Made by a program: the position numbers and the translations under genes. This document shows, one piece after another, positions 5,986 to 27,833 of a DNA stretch of 34,027 bases. The stretch lies in IMG/VR virus record IMGVR_UViG_2698536418_000026. One strand, 5' to 3'. The notes beneath the pieces are model-generated. The model was not told where the DNA came from. It saw nothing but the letters and a program-made list of their open reading frames with translations, and did not search any database. The number at the start of each line of letters is the position of its first letter. Positions within the stretch are counted from its first letter, which is position 1. The stretch is from a virus. Its lineage: Duplodnaviria; Heunggongvirae; Uroviricota; Caudoviricetes.

Positions 5986-6019
5986 GACCACCTCCTTAGG
6001 AGGTGGTCTTTTACTGTTT
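5986..6019. terminator. Strong hairpin (GACCACCTCC-tta-GGAGGTGGTC) followed by TTTTACTGTTT, between convergent genes A and the cargo helicase
   Basis: 10-bp perfect stem with 3-nt loop and T-run on the plus strand; immediately abuts the stop of the minus-strand cargo gene, so may act bidirectionally. Confidence 0.45.
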
Positions 6020-8501
6020 AACGAGGATTTCGCGTATAGGTTTCAACTATGTCTGATGCACGTAATTTACATGTAATCAATTGTTCTCTTATAAATATCT
6101 CATCGTGTCGTTTATCACTTGTACAAATGGCCGTGATAAAACTGAGGATAGATGCTTTAAAACGTTCAAGATCATTTATGGTCATTATTCGAGACCCTTC
6201 GTTTAGTGTTGCGGCATATTCAGGCATGTTAGAGTGATGTATCATTATAGGTGTGGCGGTAGCAGTTTGATCATACATGTTTCTGAACCATGCACCCGAC
6301 CCATTTAACTGATTGCAGTCATGCTTACTTATTCTTTCTGCGGTTGCTCCATTTTTGCATTCAATTACTAGATAATTGTTTTCTCCCATTGCCCATAAAT
6401 TGTCAGGTCCTTTACCTGTATCATTTTCTGGCCGTTGGCTACGAAAACCGACCAAATATGCAACTTTTTCGATAGCATCTTCGAAGGGATTCGATGTGCC
6501 CTCGGAGAAAATAAGGTTTTCTATTATTGAATTAGTATGCACAACGACTTGATTCGCCGATTCAAAATTACTTCTGAGATAGGAGCTACATTCCCTAGCC
6601 TGTTCAAGTGCCGCACCATTAAGTCTATTATATGTTACGCCGATTAGTGGTTTTAATACCCGATAGTTATCGTTTGATGCAGACTGAAGCAATATCTGAG
6701 CTTCAGATTTGTCATATAAGTTTACATATTCCGCAGCATGTTCTTTTAGATAACCCTTATAAACTTTGTCAGCTGTGCTACTATCATTTTTTAGAGTTAA
6801 AGCGGCTTGTTGAAACATATTTCGTGATGCTAAGTCATATGCCAATCTTTTGTTTATAGTATGCTGGTCAATCTGCTTATTTTCCAATGTTAAGCCAGTC
6901 AATATACCTTTGCTTTTTGAGACCCAGTCAGAATTGCGTAACAGACAATAATCAAGAGCACCTTTGATTGAATCAATAGTTGTATCCGGCAGTATCGATA
7001 CCAATTGCTGTGAAAGTTGAATTTGTGCTTTCGTTGCTGGAGAAAACCTTTCTAAGGAGGAGCCAAGGAAAACAGCGCCATTTAATGCTTTGCCAAGTAA
7101 GATCACTCCGCAGAAGTCGTCGCTTGATCTCACTCCTCGCCCCATTCCTTGTTCAATTTTCTGGATAATTTCATCTTTGGTTTTTTCGCTTCCAAGCAAT
7201 AAGCTTTGTGAGACTTTATCTATTAGTCTACGAACGTCAGGAAGTCCATCTATTACTAATAGACGACATGCGGTATTTGGTAAATCAATACCATCATATC
7301 TATTAACTAGGACTACTAAGCCAACATGTTGTGTCCTTAATTCTTGTACACCTTGATAAATTGTATTTTTATCTAATATTCTGTCTGCAACATCTTGCCA
7401 AAATCTAGTTCTGTAATCGGATGGTACAATTACAACAACATTATGTTTGGAGGATATCTCCTTGCACATAGCTTTGATATCTACATCAGAAAGACTAGGG
7501 TTTATAACCTGAGGCATTAGTATCATTCTATCACCAATATCACCAATTGTTTTTGGTGTTATCGGATTAGAGAGTGATTCATCCGTTATTCCGAAGTGGC
7601 TCGCTAGAATGGATTCATCGACAAGAGTAGCTGTCATGAATATTTTTCTTCTTGCGTTTGATAGGCTTGGGATCATTTGGATTGGTATGCAATGAGGTGA
7701 TATCTCTATTTTGGAAGCACTTACAACGCATTTCGATAATATTAGATTGTCTTTTATTAATGGCCATTTGAAACTCAAGTCATCATGGTCTTTATTTTCT
7801 AACAAGATTGTCATTATATCATTTATGCTTTCTTGCCATTTCCAAAATGGAACTCTCACATAAGCATTTCTATCGCCGGATTTTATCTCTAGTGTTTTTG
7901 CACCAGCTTGTGTCATTAGTGAATTTTCAAAAATTCTGAATAATTTATCATAGGCAGGGTTATTTTTTTGAATGCTAATGGAGAATTGTTCTTCAATTGA
8001 AGAAAGGCAAGCGTGAGCATCGTCAATTATTATAGAGCCTATTGGTATTTTTTGTCCATCATCTCCAACGCCAAATGCAGAACGTCCATTAACCACTTTG
8101 AATATATTTGTAACTAAAATTTCTTTACCTGCAATAAATTTGGGGGACCTCTCATCCTGAGTTACAGGTATACCAAGTTGATTAGCCTCCAAAACCACTT
8201 GCTCAACTAGATAGTTGTCAGGAACAACATATACAGCGGGACCTTCTCCTTCATTTATACAGCTTTTAAGAATGATTAACCCAACTGAAGTTTTACCGCT
8301 TCCGGTATTCATTTTTATTACATTGGTTGGGCTTCTCCTTGCTTCATACCATTTTTCCCAGACCTCTGATTGCACATCTCGAGGGTATTGAAATTTGGTG
8401 TCTTTGCTCGGTAGAGCTGTAAATATATCTCGCGGTGGAATCGCTGTGTCGCTATTTACACTGGGCGAAAGCTTGGTTAAATCAAGGAAAAAACCAGACA
8501 T
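6018..8501 (-). CDS. SF2 (DEAD/DEAH-like) helicase fused to C-terminal PD-(D/E)xK nuclease; candidate single-gene anti-phage defence protein in the P2 tin/old hotspot
   Basis: 827-aa ORF with good RBS (AGAGGA). Helicase motifs read from the translation: I NTGSGKTS (res 64-72), Ia VVPDNYLVEQ, II IIIDDAH (158-163), III MTATL (289-293), V YDGIDLP (402-408), VI QGMGRGVR (451-458). C-terminal PD...ExK: GKGPD(700)NLWAMGENNYLVIE(714)CK(716). Markedly AT-rich compared with the flanking phage genes. Confidence 0.85.
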   Translation of the reverse strand: MSGFFLDLTKLSPSVNSDTAIPPRDIFTALPSKDTKFQYPRDVQSEVWEKWYEARRSPTNVIKMNTGSGKTSVGLIILKSCINEGEGPAVYVVPDNYLVEQVVLEANQLGIPVTQDERSPKFIAGKEILVTNIFKVVNGRSAFGVGDDGQKIPIGSIIIDDAHACLSSIEEQFSISIQKNNPAYDKLFRIFENSLMTQAGAKTLEIKSGDRNAYVRVPFWKWQESINDIMTILLENKDHDDLSFKWPLIKDNLILSKCVVSASKIEISPHCIPIQMIPSLSNARRKIFMTATLVDESILASHFGITDESLSNPITPKTIGDIGDRMILMPQVINPSLSDVDIKAMCKEISSKHNVVVIVPSDYRTRFWQDVADRILDKNTIYQGVQELRTQHVGLVVLVNRYDGIDLPNTACRLLVIDGLPDVRRLIDKVSQSLLLGSEKTKDEIIQKIEQGMGRGVRSSDDFCGVILLGKALNGAVFLGSSLERFSPATKAQIQLSQQLVSILPDTTIDSIKGALDYCLLRNSDWVSKSKGILTGLTLENKQIDQHTINKRLAYDLASRNMFQQAALTLKNDSSTADKVYKGYLKEHAAEYVNLYDKSEAQILLQSASNDNYRVLKPLIGVTYNRLNGAALEQARECSSYLRSNFESANQVVVHTNSIIENLIFSEGTSNPFEDAIEKVAYLVGFRSQRPENDTGKGPDNLWAMGENNYLVIECKNGATAERISKHDCNQLNGSGAWFRNMYDQTATATPIMIHHSNMPEYAATLNEGSRIMTINDLERFKASILSFITAICTSDKRHDEIFIREQLITCKLRASDIVETYTRNPR

Positions 8502-20012: not shown

Positions 20013-20616
20013 TTCGCGACTGCTGCCGACCGGCTCATCACCGCTTGAAGTCGCTGCCGCAAAAGCCTGTGCGGAAATTGAAAAAACGCCGGTCAGTATT
20101 CGTGAGCTGTGGAACCCGGACACCTGCCCGGCAAATCTGCTGCCGTGGCTGGCGTGGTCATTTTCGGTTGACCGCTGGGATGATAAGTGGCCGGAAGCGA
20201 CAAAACGCGCTGTTATCCGCGATGCGTATTTCATTCACTGCCATAAGGGCACTATAGGCGCAATCCGGCGTGTGGTGGAGCCGCTCGGCTATCTGATTGA
20301 GGTGAGGGAGTGGTGGCAGCTCAACGAGGAGCCGGGGACGTTCCGCATCGTTGTTGGCGTGCTTGAGCAGGGTATTACCGAGGAAATGTATCAGGAGCTG
20401 GAGCGCCTCGTTGCTGATGCAAAACCGGCAAGCCGCCATCTGACGGGACTGGCTATCAGCTTAAGTACAACCGGCAACATTTTTGCCGGTGCGGGATGCT
20501 ATCACGGCGACGCCATGACGGTTTATCCCTACACCCCGGAGGCCATTATTGTCGGAGGGGATTATTTCCCGGCCTCGGCCATTCATTTAATTGATAACCT
20601 GAGAGTAAACGCATGA
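20005..20616 (+). CDS. I: Baseplate/tail protein I
   Basis: 203-aa ORF overlapping the J stop (ATGAGTGA) and the H start. Confidence 0.9.
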   Translation: MSDSRLLPTGSSPLEVAAAKACAEIEKTPVSIRELWNPDTCPANLLPWLAWSFSVDRWDDKWPEATKRAVIRDAYFIHCHKGTIGAIRRVVEPLGYLIEVREWWQLNEEPGTFRIVVGVLEQGITEEMYQELERLVADAKPASRHLTGLAISLSTTGNIFAGAGCYHGDAMTVYPYTPEAIIVGGDYFPASAIHLIDNLRVNA

Positions 20617-21977
20617 CAGTGAAATACTACGCCATTCTGACTAATCAGGGCGCAGCACGGCTGGCTAACGCGACGATGCTCGGCAGTAAGCTGAATCTGA
20701 CGCAAATGGCCGTTGGTGATGCGAATGGTGTCTTGCCGACCCCAGACCCGGCACAGACAAAACTGATTAACCAGAAACGCATCGCGCCGCTGAATCTTCT
20801 GAGTGTTGACCCGAACAACCAGAGCCAGATTATTGCGGAGCAAATCATCCCTGAGAACGAGGGCGGATTCTGGATCCGTGAGATTGGGCTTTATGATGAT
20901 GAAGGCGTACTCATTGCGGTGGCGAACTGCCCGGAAACGTACAAACCGCAGTTGCAGGAAGGCAGTGGTCGTACCCAGACTATCCGCATGATTCTGGTTG
21001 TCACGAATACCGAAGCCATCACGCTGAAAATCGACCCGTCGGTGGTACTGGCGACCCGTAAATACGTGGATGATGAAGTCCTGGAATTAAAGCTGTATGT
21101 GGATGACCAGATGAGGAACCACATTGCCGCACAGGATCCTCATACCCAGTATGCGCAGAAACATAATCCGACATTTACCGGAGAACCAAAAGCGCCGACG
21201 CCTGCCGCAGGAAATAACACCACGCGGATTGCGACCACTGCGTTTGTTCAGGCCGCTATTACCGCTCTGATTAACGGTGCGCCAGCCACACTGGACACAC
21301 TGAAAGAAATTGCCGCGGCCATTAACAATGACCCGAAATTCAGCACCACCATTAACAATGCGCTGTCAGGTAAGCAGCCACTGGATGAGACGCTGACTCA
21401 TTTGAGTGGAAAGGATGTTGCCGGTCTTCTCGCATACCTTGGTTTGGGAGAAGGCTCTGCATTACCGGTTGGGGTGCCTGTTCCGTGGCCTTCAGCCACT
21501 CCGCCAACAGGCTGGCTGAAATGCAATGGTGCGGCTTTTTCTGCTGAAGAATACCCGGAACTGGCAAAGGCTTACCCGACCAATAAATTGCCTGATTTAC
21601 GCGGTGAATTTATTCGTGGCTGGGATGATGGACGTGGAGTGGATGCGGGGCGAGCCTTGCTAAGTCTTCAGGATGACTCTTTTGAAGCTCACAGGCATGA
21701 GTCCTTTTTTTACGCGGGTATTTCACGCAATGAAATACCATTAAAAAATCTTCCAAGTTCAGACGAGATGCTGACTTTAAGTTCTACAACTAATGCCTTG
21801 TCCCCGGACGGTATTGATGCCACTAATTCGTTAATTGGTAATGATGATTACAACTGTCTGATTGAAGGAAATAAAAATAACAAACGAACAGCGACGGGGT
21901 TGAGTACCAGTATTGTCGGTGCAGCAGAGACACGCCCACGTAATATTTCATTTAATTACATTGTGAGGGCTGCATGA
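20613..21977 (+). CDS. H: Tail fibre protein H (constant N-terminus plus invertible C-terminal tip with tail-collar motif)
   Basis: 454 aa; C-terminal part has the phage tail-collar signature (...NKLPDLRGEFIRGWDDGRG...); residues 91-454 are duplicated in inverted orientation at 24115..25208. Confidence 0.9.
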   Translation: MTVKYYAILTNQGAARLANATMLGSKLNLTQMAVGDANGVLPTPDPAQTKLINQKRIAPLNLLSVDPNNQSQIIAEQIIPENEGGFWIREIGLYDDEGVLIAVANCPETYKPQLQEGSGRTQTIRMILVVTNTEAITLKIDPSVVLATRKYVDDEVLELKLYVDDQMRNHIAAQDPHTQYAQKHNPTFTGEPKAPTPAAGNNTTRIATTAFVQAAITALINGAPATLDTLKEIAAAINNDPKFSTTINNALSGKQPLDETLTHLSGKDVAGLLAYLGLGEGSALPVGVPVPWPSATPPTGWLKCNGAAFSAEEYPELAKAYPTNKLPDLRGEFIRGWDDGRGVDAGRALLSLQDDSFEAHRHESFFYAGISRNEIPLKNLPSSDEMLTLSSTTNALSPDGIDATNSLIGNDDYNCLIEGNKNNKRTATGLSTSIVGAAETRPRNISFNYIVRAA

Positions 21978-22196
21978 TGTATAATGCCATCTTGAATAGT
22001 AAATTTATTGCCACAAAGGCAGGAGAGATTACCGTTTATAACTATGACAGTGAGACACGGGAGTATATTTCTGCATCAACTGAATATCTTGCTGTGGGTG
22101 TCGGTATCCCTGCATATTCCTGTTTAGATGCTCCTGGCACACATAAGGCGGGTTATGCAATCTGCCGTTCGGCAGATTTAAACTCATGGGAATATG
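20884..22196. repeat. Inverted repeat A (copy 1): H codons 91-454 plus G codons 1-74
   Basis: Mirrored at 23896..25208 (x maps to 46092-x); embedded ORF translations are identical in the ORF track (e.g. 20891..21124 vs 24968..25201, 21352..21567 vs 24525..24740). Confidence 0.9.
21427..21452. other. gix/hix-like 26-bp crossover site inside H (TTCTCGCATACC-TT-GGTTTGGGAGAA)
   Basis: Imperfect palindrome matching the remembered Gin/Hin half-site pattern TTnnCnAAACC; a near-identical site lies at the 5' end of the alternative tip ORF (22744-22769); both encode the shared peptide LGLGE. Confidence 0.45.
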
Positions 22197-22261
22197 AACG
22201 CGTTGACGTGACTCCCCTGCAGCCAGCAAACGCCCGGCCTGCTCCCACTCACTCGTGGTGA
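21974..22261 (+). pseudogene. Tail fibre assembly gene G, N-terminal fragment (first ~74 codons) fused out of frame into the antisense of the invertase copy
   Basis: First 73 aa identical to the full G at 23513..24118, then diverges exactly at the breakpoint nt 22197. Confidence 0.6.
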
Positions 22262-22694
22262 GTTTAGGACGTCTGCCACCAATACGACCTTTGGCTCTGG
22301 CCGCTTCCAGCCCGGCTCGAGTCCGCTCGACAATGAGTTCTCGTTCCATTTCGGCCAGGGCACCCATCACATGAAAGAAAAAACGCCCCATCGGCGTGCT
22401 GGTATCAATAGCATCCGTCAGGCTGCGAAAATTAACGCCGCGTTCGCGCAGCTCCTCAACCAGAATGACCAGATGCCGCATACTACGCCCCAGCCGGTCC
22501 AGCTTCCAGACTACCAGTGTATCCCCCTCCGATAATGTCCTGAGCAGTTTTTTCAGTCCCGGCCTGTCGGACTTCGTGCCGCTGATTTTGTCCTCAAAAA
22601 TCAGCTCACATCCTGCGCACTCCAGCGCGTTACGCTGCAATTCCGTGCTCTGGTCATTTGTTGACACGCGTACATAGCCAATAAGCATGAGCAT
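22029..22694 (-). pseudogene. Gin-family invertase, truncated copy (catalytic domain codons 1-~165, HTH DNA-binding C-terminus replaced by junction-derived sequence)
   Basis: First 168 aa identical to the intact invertase at 25984..26583; C-terminus reads into antisense G/H sequence after breakpoint nt 22197. Confidence 0.6.
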
Positions 22695-22715
22695 CCCCCT
22701 GAATAAAAACCGGAG

Positions 22716-23105
22716 ATGATGCCAGTTAGCCGTAATCTCTGCATTTTCTTAAACGTTGGTTTGGGGGAATTGGCTCTGGCTGGCGCAACAACCGGCGCTA
22801 TGTTGGTGAATGGGTATGTAGCAATTCCATTAATTATTTCTGGCGTTCGGAGACCACTTATTATCCAGTGGGGAGTGGGGCAGTTTGGGGGAAGTCTGGG
22901 GGATGATGCGGGATATTTAAACAATTTCCCTTTCGCTTTTCCGTCGGCGTGCTACGTGATGGTTGCCAGCCACGTGGGGCATACACCTTCGGGTGCCGGA
23001 ATACTATCTGCTTCCGCAATCACAAAAAGCGGCTTTCGTGGTTTTTCCAGCGTAGTGACTGCCGCAAATCCTGTATCGGGCTGTTATGTTGCTATAGGAG
23101 GGTGA
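22716..23105 (+). CDS. Alternative tail fibre C-terminal tip segment (Hv'), expressed only when fused to the H constant part by inversion
   Basis: 129-aa ATG-to-stop ORF; the segment after the crossover site (GLGELALAG...) would replace the H tip; followed in the same orientation by its own chaperone gene. Confidence 0.6.
   Translation: MMPVSRNLCIFLNVGLGELALAGATTGAMLVNGYVAIPLIISGVRRPLIIQWGVGQFGGSLGDDAGYLNNFPFAFPSACYVMVASHVGHTPSGAGILSASAITKSGFRGFSSVVTAANPVSGCYVAIGG
22744..22769. other. gix/hix-like crossover site (TTTTCTTAAACG-TT-GGTTTGGGGGAA) at the 5' end of the alternative fibre tip, 21 bp from the invertase start
   Basis: Same half-site pattern as the H-internal site; arrangement (site between divergent invertase and variable fibre segment) mirrors Mu gixR/gin. 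Confidence 0.45.
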
Positions 23106-23106
23106 T

Positions 23107-23541
23107 GTGTTTTTTAGTCCATCTTTAAATATTTTTGTGAATCCTGCGCTTAAGGATGACTACATCAATGTAAATTCATGGCCAGATGATGCTGTTGAAG
23201 TTGATGAGCAGGTGTATATTGAGTTTTCCGGATTACCGCCGAAAGGAAAAATCCGTATCGCTGGGGAAAATGGTTTTCCTGCATGGTCTGAAATTCCACC
23301 ACCAACGCATGAGGAACAGATTGCCGCAGCCGAATTGAAAAAACAGCAATTGATTAATCAGTCCAACGAATATATGAATACCAAGCAATGGCCTGGTAAA
23401 GCGGCTATTGGTCGTCTGAAAGGTGAGGAACTGGCGCAATATAATTTGTGGCTGGATTATCTGGACGCACTGGAACTGGTTGATACCTCCAGTGCTCCAG
23501 ATATTGAATGGCCTACGCCTCCGGCAGTTCAGGCCAGATGA
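23107..23541 (+). CDS. Alternative tail fibre assembly chaperone (Tfa', U'-like)
   Basis: 144 aa; C-terminus ...DTSSAPDIEWPTPP resembles the G C-terminus (...DTSTAPDVIWPELP); convergent 29-bp overlap with G as for U/U' in Mu-type invertible segments. Confidence 0.8.
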   Translation: MFFSPSLNIFVNPALKDDYINVNSWPDDAVEVDEQVYIEFSGLPPKGKIRIAGENGFPAWSEIPPPTHEEQIAAAELKKQQLINQSNEYMNTKQWPGKAAIGRLKGEELAQYNLWLDYLDALELVDTSSAPDIEWPTPPAVQAR

Positions 23542-24118
23542 CATCCGGCGCGGTGCTCGTATCTGTTGCCGTCACCGCGTCAATGTAATCCAGCGCAGCG
23601 TTAAGTCGGGCGGTTTCTGCCTGCGTCAGATTCCGTCCGGCCTGCAATTTCAGCTGAATCAGACTAATGGAAGCCATTGCAGTATCAATCAGTGACTGAC
23701 GCTGTGCTTCTGCCGCGCCTACTGCGGCGCTATGCTGTGCCACAGTATCTGTTACCCATTTCTCACCATCCCATTCATCGTATGGCGTTAACGGGGCGAT
23801 AGTGGTTGTATTTTCAGGATAATCACCCGGAGCTGTGATTTCTTTCGATTCTCCTGTTTCGGTGCTATAGATGATTTCACCGCGATGGTCTGACACATAT
23901 TCCCATGAGTTTAAATCTGCCGAACGGCAGATTGCATAACCCGCCTTATGTGTGCCAGGAGCATCTAAACAGGAATATGCAGGGATACCGACACCCACAG
24001 CAAGATATTCAGTTGATGCAGAAATATACTCCCGTGTCTCACTGTCATAGTTATAAACGGTAATCTCTCCTGCCTTTGTGGCAATAAATTTACTATTCAA
24101 GATGGCATTATACATCAT
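23513..24118 (-). CDS. G: Tail fibre assembly chaperone G (full length)
   Basis: 201 aa, directly downstream of and overlapping the H-fragment stop on the minus strand; typical Tfa C-terminus. Confidence 0.85.
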   Translation of the reverse strand: MMYNAILNSKFIATKAGEITVYNYDSETREYISASTEYLAVGVGIPAYSCLDAPGTHKAGYAICRSADLNSWEYVSDHRGEIIYSTETGESKEITAPGDYPENTTTIAPLTPYDEWDGEKWVTDTVAQHSAAVGAAEAQRQSLIDTAMASISLIQLKLQAGRNLTQAETARLNAALDYIDAVTATDTSTAPDVIWPELPEA

Positions 24119-25208
24119 GCAGCCCTCACAATGTAATTAAATGAAATATTACGTGGGCGTGTCTCTGCTGCACCGACAATACTGGTACTCAACCCCGTCG
24201 CTGTTCGTTTGTTATTTTTATTTCCTTCAATCAGACAGTTGTAATCATCATTACCAATTAACGAATTAGTGGCATCAATACCGTCCGGGGACAAGGCATT
24301 AGTTGTAGAACTTAAAGTCAGCATCTCGTCTGAACTTGGAAGATTTTTTAATGGTATTTCATTGCGTGAAATACCCGCGTAAAAAAAGGACTCATGCCTG
24401 TGAGCTTCAAAAGAGTCATCCTGAAGACTTAGCAAGGCTCGCCCCGCATCCACTCCACGTCCATCATCCCAGCCACGAATAAATTCACCGCGTAAATCAG
24501 GCAATTTATTGGTCGGGTAAGCCTTTGCCAGTTCCGGGTATTCTTCAGCAGAAAAAGCCGCACCATTGCATTTCAGCCAGCCTGTTGGCGGAGTGGCTGA
24601 AGGCCACGGAACAGGCACCCCAACCGGTAATGCAGAGCCTTCTCCCAAACCAAGGTATGCGAGAAGACCGGCAACATCCTTTCCACTCAAATGAGTCAGC
24701 GTCTCATCCAGTGGCTGCTTACCTGACAGCGCATTGTTAATGGTGGTGCTGAATTTCGGGTCATTGTTAATGGCCGCGGCAATTTCTTTCAGTGTGTCCA
24801 GTGTGGCTGGCGCACCGTTAATCAGAGCGGTAATAGCGGCCTGAACAAACGCAGTGGTCGCAATCCGCGTGGTGTTATTTCCTGCGGCAGGCGTCGGCGC
24901 TTTTGGTTCTCCGGTAAATGTCGGATTATGTTTCTGCGCATACTGGGTATGAGGATCCTGTGCGGCAATGTGGTTCCTCATCTGGTCATCCACATACAGC
25001 TTTAATTCCAGGACTTCATCATCCACGTATTTACGGGTCGCCAGTACCACCGACGGGTCGATTTTCAGCGTGATGGCTTCGGTATTCGTGACAACCAGAA
25101 TCATGCGGATAGTCTGGGTACGACCACTGCCTTCCTGCAACTGCGGTTTGTACGTTTCCGGGCAGTTCGCCACCGCAATGAGTACGCCTTCATCATCATA
25201 AAGCCCAA
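23896..25208. repeat. Inverted repeat A (copy 2, reverse complement of 20884..22196)
   Basis: See copy 1; boundaries determined by base-by-base comparison at both ends. Confidence 0.9.
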
Positions 25209-25230
25209 AGCGTCCAGATAATCCAGCCAC
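24115..25230 (-). pseudogene. Tail fibre H fragment (codons 91-454, lacks N-terminal virion-attachment part and its own start)
   Basis: 371-aa ORF identical to H residues ~84-454 after a short junction-derived N-terminus (MAGLSGRFG). Confidence 0.7.
24640..24665. other. gix/hix-like site, inverted copy of the H-internal site
   Basis: Reverse complement of 21427..21452, inside inverted repeat A copy 2. Confidence 0.45.
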
Positions 25231-25571
25231 AAATTATATTGCGCCAGTTCCTCACCTTTCAGACGACCAATAGCCGCTTTACCAGGCCATTGCTTGGTAT
25301 TCATATATTCGTTGGACTGATTAATCAATTGCTGTTTTTTCAATTCGGCTGCGGCAATCTGTTCCTCATGCGTTGGTGGTGGAATTTCAGACCATGCAGG
25401 AAAACCATTTTCCCCAGCGATACGGATTTTTCCTTTCGGCGGTAATCCGGAAAACTCAATATACACCTGCTCATCAACTTCAACAGCATCATCTGGCCAT
25501 GAATTTACATTGATGTAGTCATCCTTAAGCGCAGGATTCACAAAAATATTTAAAGATGGACTAAAAAACAC
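25101..25571 (-). pseudogene. Alternative chaperone Tfa' copy with junction-altered C-terminus
   Basis: First ~120 codons identical to 23107..23541, then diverges at breakpoint nt 25209 into antisense H sequence. Confidence 0.6.
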
Positions 25572-25572
25572 A

Positions 25573-25962
25573 TCACCCTCCTATAGCAACATAACAGCCC
25601 GATACAGGATTTGCGGCAGTCACTACGCTGGAAAAACCACGAAAGCCGCTTTTTGTGATTGCGGAAGCAGATAGTATTCCGGCACCCGAAGGTGTATGCC
25701 CCACGTGGCTGGCAACCATCACGTAGCACGCCGACGGAAAAGCGAAAGGGAAATTGTTTAAATATCCCGCATCATCCCCCAGACTTCCCCCAAACTGCCC
25801 CACTCCCCACTGGATAATAAGTGGTCTCCGAACGCCAGAAATAATTAATGGAATTGCTACATACCCATTCACCAACATAGCGCCGGTTGTTGCGCCAGCC
25901 AGAGCCAATTCCCCCAAACCAACGTTTAAGAAAATGCAGAGATTACGGCTAACTGGCATCAT
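25573..25962 (-). CDS. Alternative tail fibre C-terminal tip segment (Hv'), second copy, in the orientation expected for the silent position next to the invertase
   Basis: Identical 129-aa translation to 22716..23105; divergent from the intact invertase with a 21-bp gap. Confidence 0.6.
   Translation of the reverse strand: MMPVSRNLCIFLNVGLGELALAGATTGAMLVNGYVAIPLIISGVRRPLIIQWGVGQFGGSLGDDAGYLNNFPFAFPSACYVMVASHVGHTPSGAGILSASAITKSGFRGFSSVVTAANPVSGCYVAIGG
25909..25934. other. gix/hix-like crossover site adjacent to the intact invertase (gixR-equivalent)
   Basis: Reverse complement of 22744..22769. Confidence 0.45.
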
Positions 25963-25983
25963 CTCCGGTTTTTATTCAGGGGG

Positions 25984-26583
25984 ATGCTCATGCTTATTGG
26001 CTATGTACGCGTGTCAACAAATGACCAGAGCACGGAATTGCAGCGTAACGCGCTGGAGTGCGCAGGATGTGAGCTGATTTTTGAGGACAAAATCAGCGGC
26101 ACGAAGTCCGACAGGCCGGGACTGAAAAAACTGCTCAGGACATTATCGGAGGGGGATACACTGGTAGTCTGGAAGCTGGACCGGCTGGGGCGTAGTATGC
26201 GGCATCTGGTCATTCTGGTTGAGGAGCTGCGCGAACGCGGCGTTAATTTTCGCAGCCTGACGGATGCTATTGATACCAGCACGCCGATGGGGCGTTTTTT
26301 CTTTCATGTGATGGGTGCCCTGGCCGAAATGGAACGAGAACTCATTGTCGAGCGGACTCGAGCCGGGCTGGAAGCGGCCAGAGCCAAAGGTCGTATTGGT
26401 GGCAGACGTCCTAAACTCACCACGAGTGAGTGGGAGCAGGCCGGGCGTTTGCTGGCTGCAGGGGAGTCACGTCAACGCGTGGCACTGATTTTTGATATTG
26501 GCCTGTCCACGCTCTATAAAAAATTCCCCGCCTCAGTGACAAAAAATAAATTGTGTCATCCCTTAGCCAACCGGGACAAATAG
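25984..26583 (+). CDS. Site-specific DNA invertase, serine recombinase of the Gin/Hin/Cin/Pin family (intact)
   Basis: 199-aa ORF (probable start at second Met, MLIGYVRVSTNDQ); catalytic Ser in RVSTNDQ; near-collinear match to remembered Gin sequence (DTLVVWKLDRLGRS, MGRFFFHVMGALAEMERE) and C-terminal HTH (LIFDIGLSTLYKKFPA). Confidence 0.9.
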   Translation: MLMLIGYVRVSTNDQSTELQRNALECAGCELIFEDKISGTKSDRPGLKKLLRTLSEGDTLVVWKLDRLGRSMRHLVILVEELRERGVNFRSLTDAIDTSTPMGRFFFHVMGALAEMERELIVERTRAGLEAARAKGRIGGRRPKLTTSEWEQAGRLLAAGESRQRVALIFDIGLSTLYKKFPASVTKNKLCHPLANRDK

Positions 26584-26642
26584 CCTGACATCTCCGGCAC
26601 AACTGAAAATATCACTCACCCATTAACCACGGAGTTAAACGG

Positions 26643-27833
26643 ATGAGTGACTATCATCACGGCGTGCAGGTGCTGGAGATTAACGACGGCACCCGCGTCA
26701 TTTCCACCGTATCCACTGCCATTGTCGGCATGGTCTGCACGGCCAGCGATGCGGATGCGGAAACCTTCCCCCTCAATAAACCTGTGCTGATTACCAATGT
26801 GCAGAGCGCAATTGCAAAGGCCGGTAAAAAAGGCACGCTGGCGGCATCGTTGCAGGCCATCGCTGACCAGTCAAAACCGGTTACCGTTGTCGTGCGTGTT
26901 GAAGACGGCACCGGCGACGACGAAGAAACGAAACTCGCGCAGACCGTTTCCAATATCATCGGCACCACTGACGAAAACGGTCAGTATACCGGACTGAAAG
27001 CCCTGCTGGCGGCGGAGTCGATAACCGGTGTTAAACCGCGTATTCTCGGTGTGCCGGGACTGGATACCAAAGAGGTGGCTGTTGCACTGGCATCCGTCTG
27101 TCAGAAGCTGCGCGCTTTCGGGTATATCAGCGCATGGGGCTGTAAAACCATTTCCGAGGTGAAAGCCTACCGCCAGAATTTCAGCCAGCGTGAGCTGATG
27201 GTCATCTGGCCGGATTTCCTCGCATGGGATACGGTCGCCAGTACCACCGCCACCGCGTATGCCACCGCCCGTGCGCTGGGTCTGCGCGCTAAAATCGACC
27301 AGGAGCAGGGCTGGCATAAAACGCTGTCCAACGTCGGGGTGAACGGTGTTACCGGCATCAGCGCGTCCGTATTCTGGGATTTGCAGGAGTCCGGCACCGA
27401 TGCTGACCTGCTTAACGAGTCAGGCGTCACAACGCTGATTCGCCGTGACGGTTTCCGCTTCTGGGGTAACCGTACCTGCTCTGATGACCCGCTGTTCCTC
27501 TTTGAAAACTACACCCGCACCGCGCAGGTGCTGGCCGACACGATGGCTGAGGCGCACATGTGGGCGGTGGACAAGCCCATCACCGCAACGCTGATTCGCG
27601 ACATCGTTGACGGCATCAATGCCAAATTCCGTGAGTTGAAAACAAACGGCTATATCGTGGATGCGACCTGCTGGTTCAGCGAAGAATCCAACGATGCGGA
27701 AACCCTCAAGGCCGGAAAACTGTATATCGACTACGACTATACACCGGTACCTCCTCTTGAAAACCTGACCCTGCGCCAGCGTATTACCGATAAATACCTG
27801 GCAAATCTGGTCACTTCGGTTAACAGCAATTAA
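26643..27833 (+). CDS. FI: Contractile tail sheath protein (P2 FI-like)
   Basis: 396 aa as in P2 FI. Confidence 0.9.
   Translation: MSDYHHGVQVLEINDGTRVISTVSTAIVGMVCTASDADAETFPLNKPVLITNVQSAIAKAGKKGTLAASLQAIADQSKPVTVVVRVEDGTGDDEETKLAQTVSNIIGTTDENGQYTGLKALLAAESITGVKPRILGVPGLDTKEVAVALASVCQKLRAFGYISAWGCKTISEVKAYRQNFSQRELMVIWPDFLAWDTVASTTATAYATARALGLRAKIDQEQGWHKTLSNVGVNGVTGISASVFWDLQESGTDADLLNESGVTTLIRRDGFRFWGNRTCSDDPLFLFENYTRTAQVLADTMAEAHMWAVDKPITATLIRDIVDGINAKFRELKTNGYIVDATCWFSEESNDAETLKAGKLYIDYDYTPVPPLENLTLRQRITDKYLANLVTSVNSN

Follow-up and report, generated by a model that had tools for sequence, protein, structure and literature searches.

The 34,027-nt window analysed here, i.e. the whole of the IMG/VR virus record IMGVR_UViG_2698536418_000026, raises the question whether the invertase gene downstream of its tail-fibre gene H serves to switch the fibre tip, and whether the doubled, partly inverted layout of the genes between the two is part of such a switch. 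Our analysis gives strong confidence in a P2-type E. coli prophage with a Pin/Gin-type invertible segment of ~1.9 kb, the extra copies of its genes and sites coming from a contig that bridges the locus and was inserted backwards.

The window is an apparently complete P2-type (Peduovirus-like) E. coli prophage. The Pfam domains on the identical contig follow the series terminase, GPO, capsid and GpL to V, W, J, I and H, and continue after H with sheath, tube, E, T, U, D and Ogr. In P2 (AF063097) fun(Z) comes after the V-operon terminator and before pF, and the module of the window occupies this same position, from the end of the V operon to pF/FI, with the homology to P2 resuming at ~26551 in the pF activator-binding region. 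The alignment with P2 thus bears out the first-pass annotation, which had put the module in the Z/fun position between G and FI. An invertase is frequently present in this hotspot (bioRxiv 10.1101/2024.10.15.618418). The right neighbour of the module in the P2 backbone is the following gene.

26643..27833, plus strand: FI tail-sheath gene, assigned by the alignment with P2 AF063097 and by Pfam sheath domains on the identical contig

The doubled layout of the window is a draft-assembly scaffolding error and not biology. A base-by-base comparison shows that the window is contig CYCB01000023.1 (L006) of GCA_001283405.1 with two differences only, both of them N versus A. We call these positions scaffold joins, since the single Ns lie exactly at both breakpoints of the layout.

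22197, no strand: scaffold join 1, N in CYCB01000023.1 and A in the window
25209, no strand: scaffold join 2, N in CYCB01000023.1 and A in the window
22198..25208, minus strand: bridging contig in the wrong orientation, the exact reverse complement of 20884-22196 and 25210-26480

The window holds two perfect inverted repeats of ~1.3 kb, namely 20884-22196 with 23896-25208 and 22198-23468 with 25210-26480, and flipping the middle piece yields perfect overlaps of 1313 and 1271 nt among the three pieces. Read on its minus strand, 22198-25208 runs from H codon 91 through the tip Hv1 and the full chaperone gene Tfa1, and then through antisense tfa' and the silent tip to the first ~164 invertase codons. 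One bridging contig inserted backwards explains both repeats, the truncated second copy of the invertase and the two surplus crossover sites. The native order, from H through the middle stretch to the right site, is read continuously and at 100% identity in a contig from another isolate (L004). Chimeras from whole-genome amplification or from fold-back reads were also considered, and were dropped once the Ns had been seen at both breakpoints.

Several ORFs of the window arise from this misplacement. A chimeric invertase ORF of 219/221 aa (22029..22694, minus strand) comes from the misoriented piece; by exact look-up, its 219-aa form, which begins at the start given in the record, is found among all indexed assemblies on the source contig only, and an exact protein look-up of the 221-aa form gave no match. 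The 95-aa ORF at 21974..22261 is an artefactual chaperone fusion across the first join, and an exact look-up did not find it in the gene-position index. No viral, genome or metagenome contig contains the junction 30-mer CATGGGAATATGAACGCGTTGACGTGACTC, as is to be expected given the N of the record at the position of the window's A. None of the complete E. coli genomes and none of the phage records covers at least 80% of 20500-26700. The 1.3-kb inverted repeats, the broken chaperone ORF at 21974..22261 and the chimeric invertase copy had gone unmentioned in the first-pass annotation.

The native order of the locus is H and a TfaE-like chaperone, then on the opposite strand a TfaP-like chaperone and a silent tip, and then the invertase and FI. 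Its parts have the following places in the window.

20613..21977, plus strand: tail-fibre gene H, 454 aa, with the constant part at 20613-21439 and the expressed tip Hv1 at 21440-21977
21974..22196, plus strand: TfaE-like chaperone of Hv1, first 74 codons, truncated at scaffold join 1
23469..23895, minus strand: middle of the invertible segment, sole copy, containing the 3' portions of the two convergent chaperone genes
25210..25571, minus strand: TfaP-like chaperone belonging to the silent tip, first ~120 codons, in true position and orientation
25573..25962, minus strand: silent alternative tip, Pfam Gp53-like_C

In the true locus the stretch 23469..23895 stands reverse-complemented between 22196 and 25210. 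The full TfaE-like chaperone is given by the 201-aa copy at 23513..24118 (minus strand), which is 88% identical to TfaE of the defective K-12 prophage e14. The full TfaP-like chaperone is given by the 144-aa copy at 23107..23541 (plus strand) on the misoriented piece, with a Pfam Caudo_TAP match of E=3e-35 and 60% identity to e14 TfaP. H has the Pfam domains Phage_tail_fib (1-150) and Collar (287-334) and a weak S_tail_recep_bd match, and exactly this protein is encoded on 24 public contigs. The convergent native order of the cassettes is also seen in the loci L002-L011.

The exchange of the two tips is in frame. When it is carried out in silico, the part 25573-25921 (112 aa) joins H, and a fibre of 454 aa becomes one of 391 aa with ~175 residues replaced by ~112. 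This agrees with the swap proposed in the first-pass annotation, as does the presence of two Caudo_TAP chaperones, one for each tip. The tip domains themselves are unrelated, i.e. Collar versus Gp53-like_C, suggesting that the two C-terminal ends may confer different host ranges.

Invertases of the Gin/Hin/Cin/Pin family are proteins of ~190 aa with an N-terminal resolvase-type domain that holds the active-site serine (Ser9 of Gin) and with a C-terminal HTH domain. Their substrate is a pair of imperfect 26-bp palindromes that are inverted relative to each other and have a central dinucleotide in common. We assign these elements in the window as follows.

25990..26583, plus strand: Pin/Gin-family serine DNA invertase, 197 aa from MLIGYVRVS or 199 aa from an upstream ATG at 25984
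26008..26079, plus strand: stretch homologous by alignment to the Fis-dependent enhancer of P1 cin, which the P1 record annotates at cin nt 19-90
21427..21452, plus strand: left site (pixL/gixL-type), TTCTCGCATACC-TT-GGTTTGGGAGAA, inside H at the codons LAYLGLGE
25909..25934, plus strand: right site (pixR-type), TTCCCCCAAACC-AA-CGTTTAAGAAAA, the true inverted partner of 21427-21452

The gene at 25984..26583 is an intact Gin-like invertase, as the first reading of the sequence had it. Its product matches Pfam Resolvase (PF00239, E=4.5e-52) and HTH_7 (PF02796, E=4.8e-13), aligns end to end with the Gin structure PDB 3uj3 (E=4.9e-94), and is 86% identical to e14 PinE, 78% to Cin and 77% to Mu Gin. 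In the alignment the column of the catalytic Ser9 is invariant, S9 lies inside the invariant block MLIGYVRVSTN, and all the columns invariant among Gin, Cin and Pin are kept. Judged by these alignments, the protein is a serine recombinase of the Gin/Hin/Cin/Pin type. Its C-terminal tail is longer than that of the e14 protein because the stop codon falls in the P2 pF promoter region. The candidate enhancer is identical to that of P1 at 57 of the 72 positions, a conservation that is confounded by the constraint on the encoded protein. It contains candidate Fis sites at 26011-26025 and 26060-26074, and the Fis consensus is matched at 15/15 positions at nt 71-85 of all four invertase genes, again within coding sequence. 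The homology inside the coding region may reflect an enhancer and a dependence on Fis.

Four core matches are found in the window, two of them on the misoriented piece bounded by Ns. The 26-bp quasi-palindromes lie at 21427-21452 and 22744-22769 and their reverse-complement copies at 24640-24665 and 25909-25934, the duplicates at 22744-22769 and 24640-24665 being supplied by the piece 22198-25208. The native locus and all the examined relatives have two crossover sites each. The central dinucleotide of the sites is TT, and they match pix, cix and gix. The literature yielded no useful gix/hix/cix alignment, and the gix, cix and pix sites were taken directly from the Mu, P1 and K-12 records. The left site agrees with e14 pixL at 23/26 positions, and the reverse complement of the right site agrees with that of e14 pixR at 24/26; in both cases no chance match with up to 3 mismatches is expected from shuffled sequences. 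The gix-like palindromes that the first-pass annotation saw at 21427-21452 and at 22744-22769 (codons FLNVGLGE) are therefore real and align with known sites. These two lie on the same strand with a central TT and with the conserved right half GGTTTGGGRGAA on the same side. They are direct repeats, so that an exchange between them would delete the interval and not invert it. The sites at 21427-21452 and 25909-25934 are ~1.87 kb apart once the artefact is removed.

Two loci provide natural evidence of switching, as read from their assemblies. E. coli CH4804 carries the same module inverted, with all five module proteins 100% identical and the DNA 99.4-99.9% identical. CH4804 combines the left half of site L with the right half of site R, and its sites are exactly the predicted reciprocal hybrids TTCTCGCATACCTTGGTTTGGGGGAA and TTCTCCCAAACCAACGTTTAAGAAAA. 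By tblastn, CH4804 has an H protein 100% identical to the 391-aa product obtained in silico by fusing the constant part of H to the alternative tip. Since CH4804 differs in orientation though the module proteins are identical and the DNA nearly so, the flip must be recent. The second case is the hairpin contig L004, which contains both junction types, with one parental and one hybrid site; its arms of 8642 nt are perfectly complementary apart from the hybrid half-site. A first BLAST with three mismatches raised the idea that L004 is two prophages joined together, which we rejected because the hybrid half-site accounts for all of them and the remainder of the arms is 100% identical. Over the 5426 complete genomes the junction of orientation 1 (H to Hv1) is found in full length in 481, and the full-length junction of orientation 2 is found in 22 complete genomes. 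Experiments in EPEC have demonstrated that P2-like prophages undergo inversion (PMC4272514).

We propose that the switch would work by analogy to Gin, Hin and Cin. The invertase would bind the two inverted 26-bp sites, form a complex with Fis at the enhancer inside the 5' end of its own gene, and cut at the shared central TT/AA dinucleotide, whereupon the half-sites would rotate by 180 degrees. The late V-operon transcript would read the constant part of H with Hv1 (454 aa) and its chaperone in one orientation, and the constant part with the alternative tip (391 aa) and its chaperone in the other. Particles of two kinds, differing in receptor specificity, could be the outcome. The dependence on Fis, the rate of switching and the difference in host range are what we infer here, next to sites, enzyme family, in-frame exchange and natural orientations that are in the data.

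A different view would be that the system is a frozen relic, with the invertase or the sites dead and the orientation differences among genomes old, which we consider very unlikely. The left half of site L, CATACC, is off the AAACC core and a simple scan found no sigma-70-like promoter near the invertase, but e14 pixL and the sites of the relatives deviate from the core in a similar way and the invertase ORF is intact with the invariant columns of its family. Moreover, the flip in CH4804 is recent, and the read set behind the hairpin L004 must have contained both junction types.

Still somewhat less probable is that the doubled layout A-B-C-A'-B' is genuine, i.e. a dupINVdup formed by two template switches, the Ns being unresolved bases at real junctions. 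There would then be four sites and an extra partial invertase copy, and the prophage could act as a multi-inversion system that shuffles among several fibre/chaperone configurations. The layout does have the formal structure of a dupINVdup, scaffolders use read-pair evidence, and shufflon-like three-site versions occur in another P2-like prophage (PMC4272514). However, the record has a single unsequenced N at each breakpoint, and the perfect overlaps obtained on flipping have the look of redundant contigs of one locus. The chimeric ORF is on one contig among all indexed assemblies, no complete E. coli genome and no phage record shows the layout, and it would break the chaperone gene adjoining H. 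We give practically no credence to the geometry of the first-pass annotation, an inversion between 21427-21452 and 22744-22769 as laid out in the window, which the sequence refutes: both sites exist and their junction would be in frame, but they are directly oriented, and the second lies on the misoriented scaffold piece.

The segment of ~1.9 kb with one site on each side has its closest relative, by the sequence comparisons, in the e14 P segment with Pin and not in Mu. The e14 locus of K-12 (stfP/ycfK-tfaP, tfaE-stfE, pinE) has the same gene order and logic as the window: the constant fibre part, a site, a tip with its chaperone, a convergent second chaperone and tip, a site and the invertase. 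In addition to the identities of the invertase (86%) and chaperones (88% and 60%), Hv1 is 53% identical to the StfE C-terminus, and the pix sites share the central dinucleotide with the window. In culture the e14 segment has been shown to invert (PMC4272514). The differences are that e14 is a lambdoid remnant while the window is an apparently complete P2-type prophage, and that the silent tip here is Gp53-like, with 39% identity to e14 StfP over 54 aa only.

The Mu G/Gin and P1 C/Cin systems are similar to the window in their serine invertases (77-78% identical), in the 26-bp sites with an AAACC-NN-GGTTT core at the joint of the constant and variable parts of the fibre gene, in the convergent tip-plus-chaperone cassettes and in the invertase adjoining one site. 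Within the constant region of H, aa 184-266 share 62-74% identity with elements that are repeated in P1 S. Mu and P1 have an enhancer within the 5' coding region of the invertase (P1 annotation), which here is a candidate only. The tips and chaperones are different, and tblastn against the Mu S/U region gave no match; the sites here have TT at the centre where Mu has TC, and the segments of Mu and P1 are larger (3 kb and 4.2 kb). Hence, of the proposal that the Mu G-segment logic was transplanted into a P2 backbone, the concept of the switch holds, while the nearest counterpart is e14 P/Pin and the transplant is not new.

Escherichia phage pro483, the P2-type phage of E. coli O157:H43 T22 and Salmonella phage MET_P1_103_31 have the same backbone with a DNA invertase in the same position. 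These phages and the invertible loci of P2-like prophages in EPEC E2348/69 carry the same double tip/chaperone module there and differ in cassette content alone; one invertase among such P2-type phages and prophages is 98.5% identical to that of the window. The close relatives L002, L007 and L009 have another silent tip (133 aa) and chaperone (139 aa). Multi-site systems, e.g. the p15B Min region and the shufflon-like locus of an EPEC P2 prophage, have at least three sites as compared to the two of the native locus.

Invertible phage segments yield misjoined scaffolds and hairpin contigs in short-read assemblies. In the window the artefact resembled a perfect 1.3-kb inverted duplication with chimeric ORFs because the single-N joins had been silently turned to A, and scans of raw sequences should distrust large perfect inverted repeats around invertase genes. 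The Pin/Gin-type fibre switch in P2-type prophages is already known. The locus thus adds little to the biology, as such switches are widespread in E. coli, with hundreds of complete genomes, named P2-type phages and the literature attesting to them.

In the window, the P2 tail-fibre gene H is followed by an odd stretch of ORFs because the region contains two exact inverted repeats. A repeat search gave 20884-22196 against 23896-25208 (1313 nt) and 22198-23468 against 25210-26480 (1271 nt), and the order A-B-C-A'-B' equals A plus the reverse complement of (A-C'-B') plus B'. The ORF listing of the deposited layout is as follows.

20613..21977: tail-fibre gene H, 454 aa
after H: 95-aa ORF, chaperone-like at its start, continuing into invertase antisense
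22029..22694, minus strand: invertase-like ORF, 221 aa
plus strand: tip ORF (129 aa) and chaperone (144 aa)
minus strand: chaperone (201 aa) and a copy of the H C-terminus (371 aa)
minus strand, next after the 371-aa H copy: copies of the tip and a truncated chaperone
25984..26583: intact invertase, with FI next after it

This doubled layout is a scaffolding artefact caused by a misoriented scaffold piece. At most 59% of 20500-26700 is covered by any complete E. coli genome or phage record. H was found by exact match on 24 contigs, and all but two have a simple order, i.e. H, 200-aa chaperone, convergent chaperone and tip, invertase and sheath. One exception is CYCB01000023.1 of GCA_001283405.1, the public contig of the window, which has exactly the gene series of the window. 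Base by base the two differ only at 22197 and 25209, where the record has 'N' and the window 'A'; both positions coincide exactly with the layout breakpoints, and the scaffold therefore consists of three pieces joined by single Ns. When flipped, the middle piece (22198-25208) overlaps its neighbours perfectly over 1313 and 1271 nt and the common order is regained. The chimeric invertase ORF occurs in this contig only among all indexed assemblies, and the native order is continuous, with 100% identity, in JHRP01000069.1 of GCA_001265535.1. The true locus is 20500-22196, the reverse complement of 23469-23895, and 25210-26700 (~3.6 kb). Hence there is no biological counterpart to the truncated invertase, to the broken chaperone ORFs or to two of the four candidate sites. 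When the window was made, ambiguity codes were apparently turned into A, which hides the joins from a sequence-only reader. The contig ends (20884, 22196, 25210 and 26480) are 543 and 546 nt away from the crossover sites on the outer side, and 744 and 699 nt away on the inner side. Such near symmetry suggests that the sites are where the assembly graph branched, possibly owing to mixed orientations among the isolate's reads, and that the assembly paths extended by about one insert length.

The intact invertase is a Gin-family enzyme, as initially proposed. It has Resolvase and HTH_7 domains, aligns over its whole length with the sequence of the Gin crystal structure (E=5e-94), and is 86%, 78% and 77% identical to e14 PinE, P1 Cin and Mu Gin, respectively, with an invariant catalytic serine block. 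P2 homology restarts rightward at ~26551, within the activator-binding (Ogr) region of pF, and the last ~11 invertase codons are therefore P2 promoter DNA. This backbone-derived C-terminal tail marks the right edge of the inserted module. The end of the ORF (26545-26583) lies in DNA homologous to the pF promoter at 2056-2152 of the P2 sequence. In P2 itself fun(Z) fills the interval of the module, so the location had been correctly named the Z/fun position. An 827-aa helicase-like ORF (6018..8501, minus strand; ResIII/DEAD/Helicase_C_2), with a full-length match to the PADLOC candidate defence family PDC-S28 (E=0, 1055 bits), occupies the other P2 cargo hotspot, i.e. the old/tin region of P2 between gpA and portal gene Q.

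The two genuine crossover sites are given below.

21427-21452, inside H: site L, pixL-type, TTCTCGCATACC-TT-GGTTTGGGAGAA
25909-25934: site R, pixR-type, as reverse complement TTTTCTTAAACG-TT-GGTTTGGGGGAA

With reference sites extracted straight from the records of K-12, P1 and Mu, we found that site L matches e14 pixL at 23/26 positions and site R matches e14 pixR at 24/26, and that both, like cix and gix, have an AAACC-NN-GGTTT core. A scan of the window for e14 sites with at most 3 mismatches returned only these two and their artefactual copies (0 expected in shuffles), and a window search with the degenerate core gave no further occurrence. The inversion had been placed between 21427-21452 and 22744-22769. 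In the window, however, each of these carries TT at its centre, and their conserved half-sites lie on the same side, which makes them direct repeats. Site L has its correct inverted partner in site R, 4456 nt apart in the window and ~1.87 kb in the true locus.

Inversion is seen in E. coli CH4804 (NZ_CM166344.1), which has the same module with the segment inverted and all five proteins 100% identical. There, a 391-aa H precedes the 144-aa chaperone, and the opposite strand carries the tip expressed in the window (Hv1) and the 200-aa chaperone. When the exchange is made in silico at the central dinucleotide, the product is a 391-aa protein with 100% identity to CH4804 H, which bears out the expected in-frame tip swap. 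The two CH4804 sites are exactly the predicted reciprocal hybrids, which narrows the crossover to positions 13-22 of the 26-mer. Among complete E. coli genomes, the full-length junction of the H constant part with Hv1 was found in 481 and that with the alternative tip in 22, including a 100% match. JHRP01000069.1 (28.7 kb; locus at 1-21365) is a perfect hairpin. Its arms, 100% reverse complements of each other for at least 8642 nt, flank one segment copy, with one parental and one hybrid (recombinant) site. For such a path to arise, one read set must supply both junction types, which means a mixed culture or, less probably, two identical prophages in opposite states. The hairpin itself is an assembly artefact that reveals mixed orientations in the reads.

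The 5' coding sequence of the invertase may contain an enhancer. In the P1 record, cin nt 19-90 are annotated as the Cin enhancer, and 26008-26079 aligns with this stretch at 57/72 identical positions. All four invertase genes match the Fis consensus GNNYRNNWNNYRNNC in full at nt 71-85. A second G...C 15-mer at nt 22-36, 49 bp upstream, is conserved in Mu, e14 and the window; it was read from the alignment, has a poor fit to the Fis consensus and did not show up in the consensus scan. This evidence is suggestive only, since the stretch is coding sequence.

Among known systems, the e14 P segment with Pin comes closest: it has the same order as the true locus, with the homologues TfaE (88%), TfaP (60%) and StfE (53%). 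Mu G/Gin and P1 C/Cin have the same logic and enzyme family but different tips. P2-type phages in GenBank with a DNA invertase at the same place include pro483, the O157:H43 T22 phage and, with an invertase 98.5% identical to that of the window, a Salmonella phage. In EPEC E2348/69 two P2-like prophage loci, one with three repeats, were found by sequencing to invert in culture (Goldberg et al. 2014, PMC4272514), and according to a 2024 preprint (10.1101/2024.10.15.618418) the P2 Z/fun hotspot often encodes a DNA invertase, accompanied by inversion of neighbouring genes. Five close relatives (L002, L003, L007, L009 and L011) have an identical H protein and 97-98% identical H/Tfa1 DNA, a pixR-type site identical to that of e14, and a different silent cassette with a 133-aa tip and 139-aa chaperone (equivalent to 25343-25909). 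Prophages that are otherwise nearly identical therefore exchange the silent half of the segment. H residues 184-266 (21162-21410) have 62-74% protein identity to the tandemly repeated b1/b2 of the P1 gene S constant part, a likeness at the end of the H constant part that is the known P2/P1 fibre-gene mosaicism.

Overall, the first-pass annotation is borne out in part: its enzyme, sites and in-frame exchange are real, but the site pair that it named and the apparent architecture are artefacts of the misoriented scaffold piece. Its interpretation is right in concept, and the arrangement is already known and very common. The main value of our analysis is a warning on N-to-A substitution and on scaffold errors at invertible segments.
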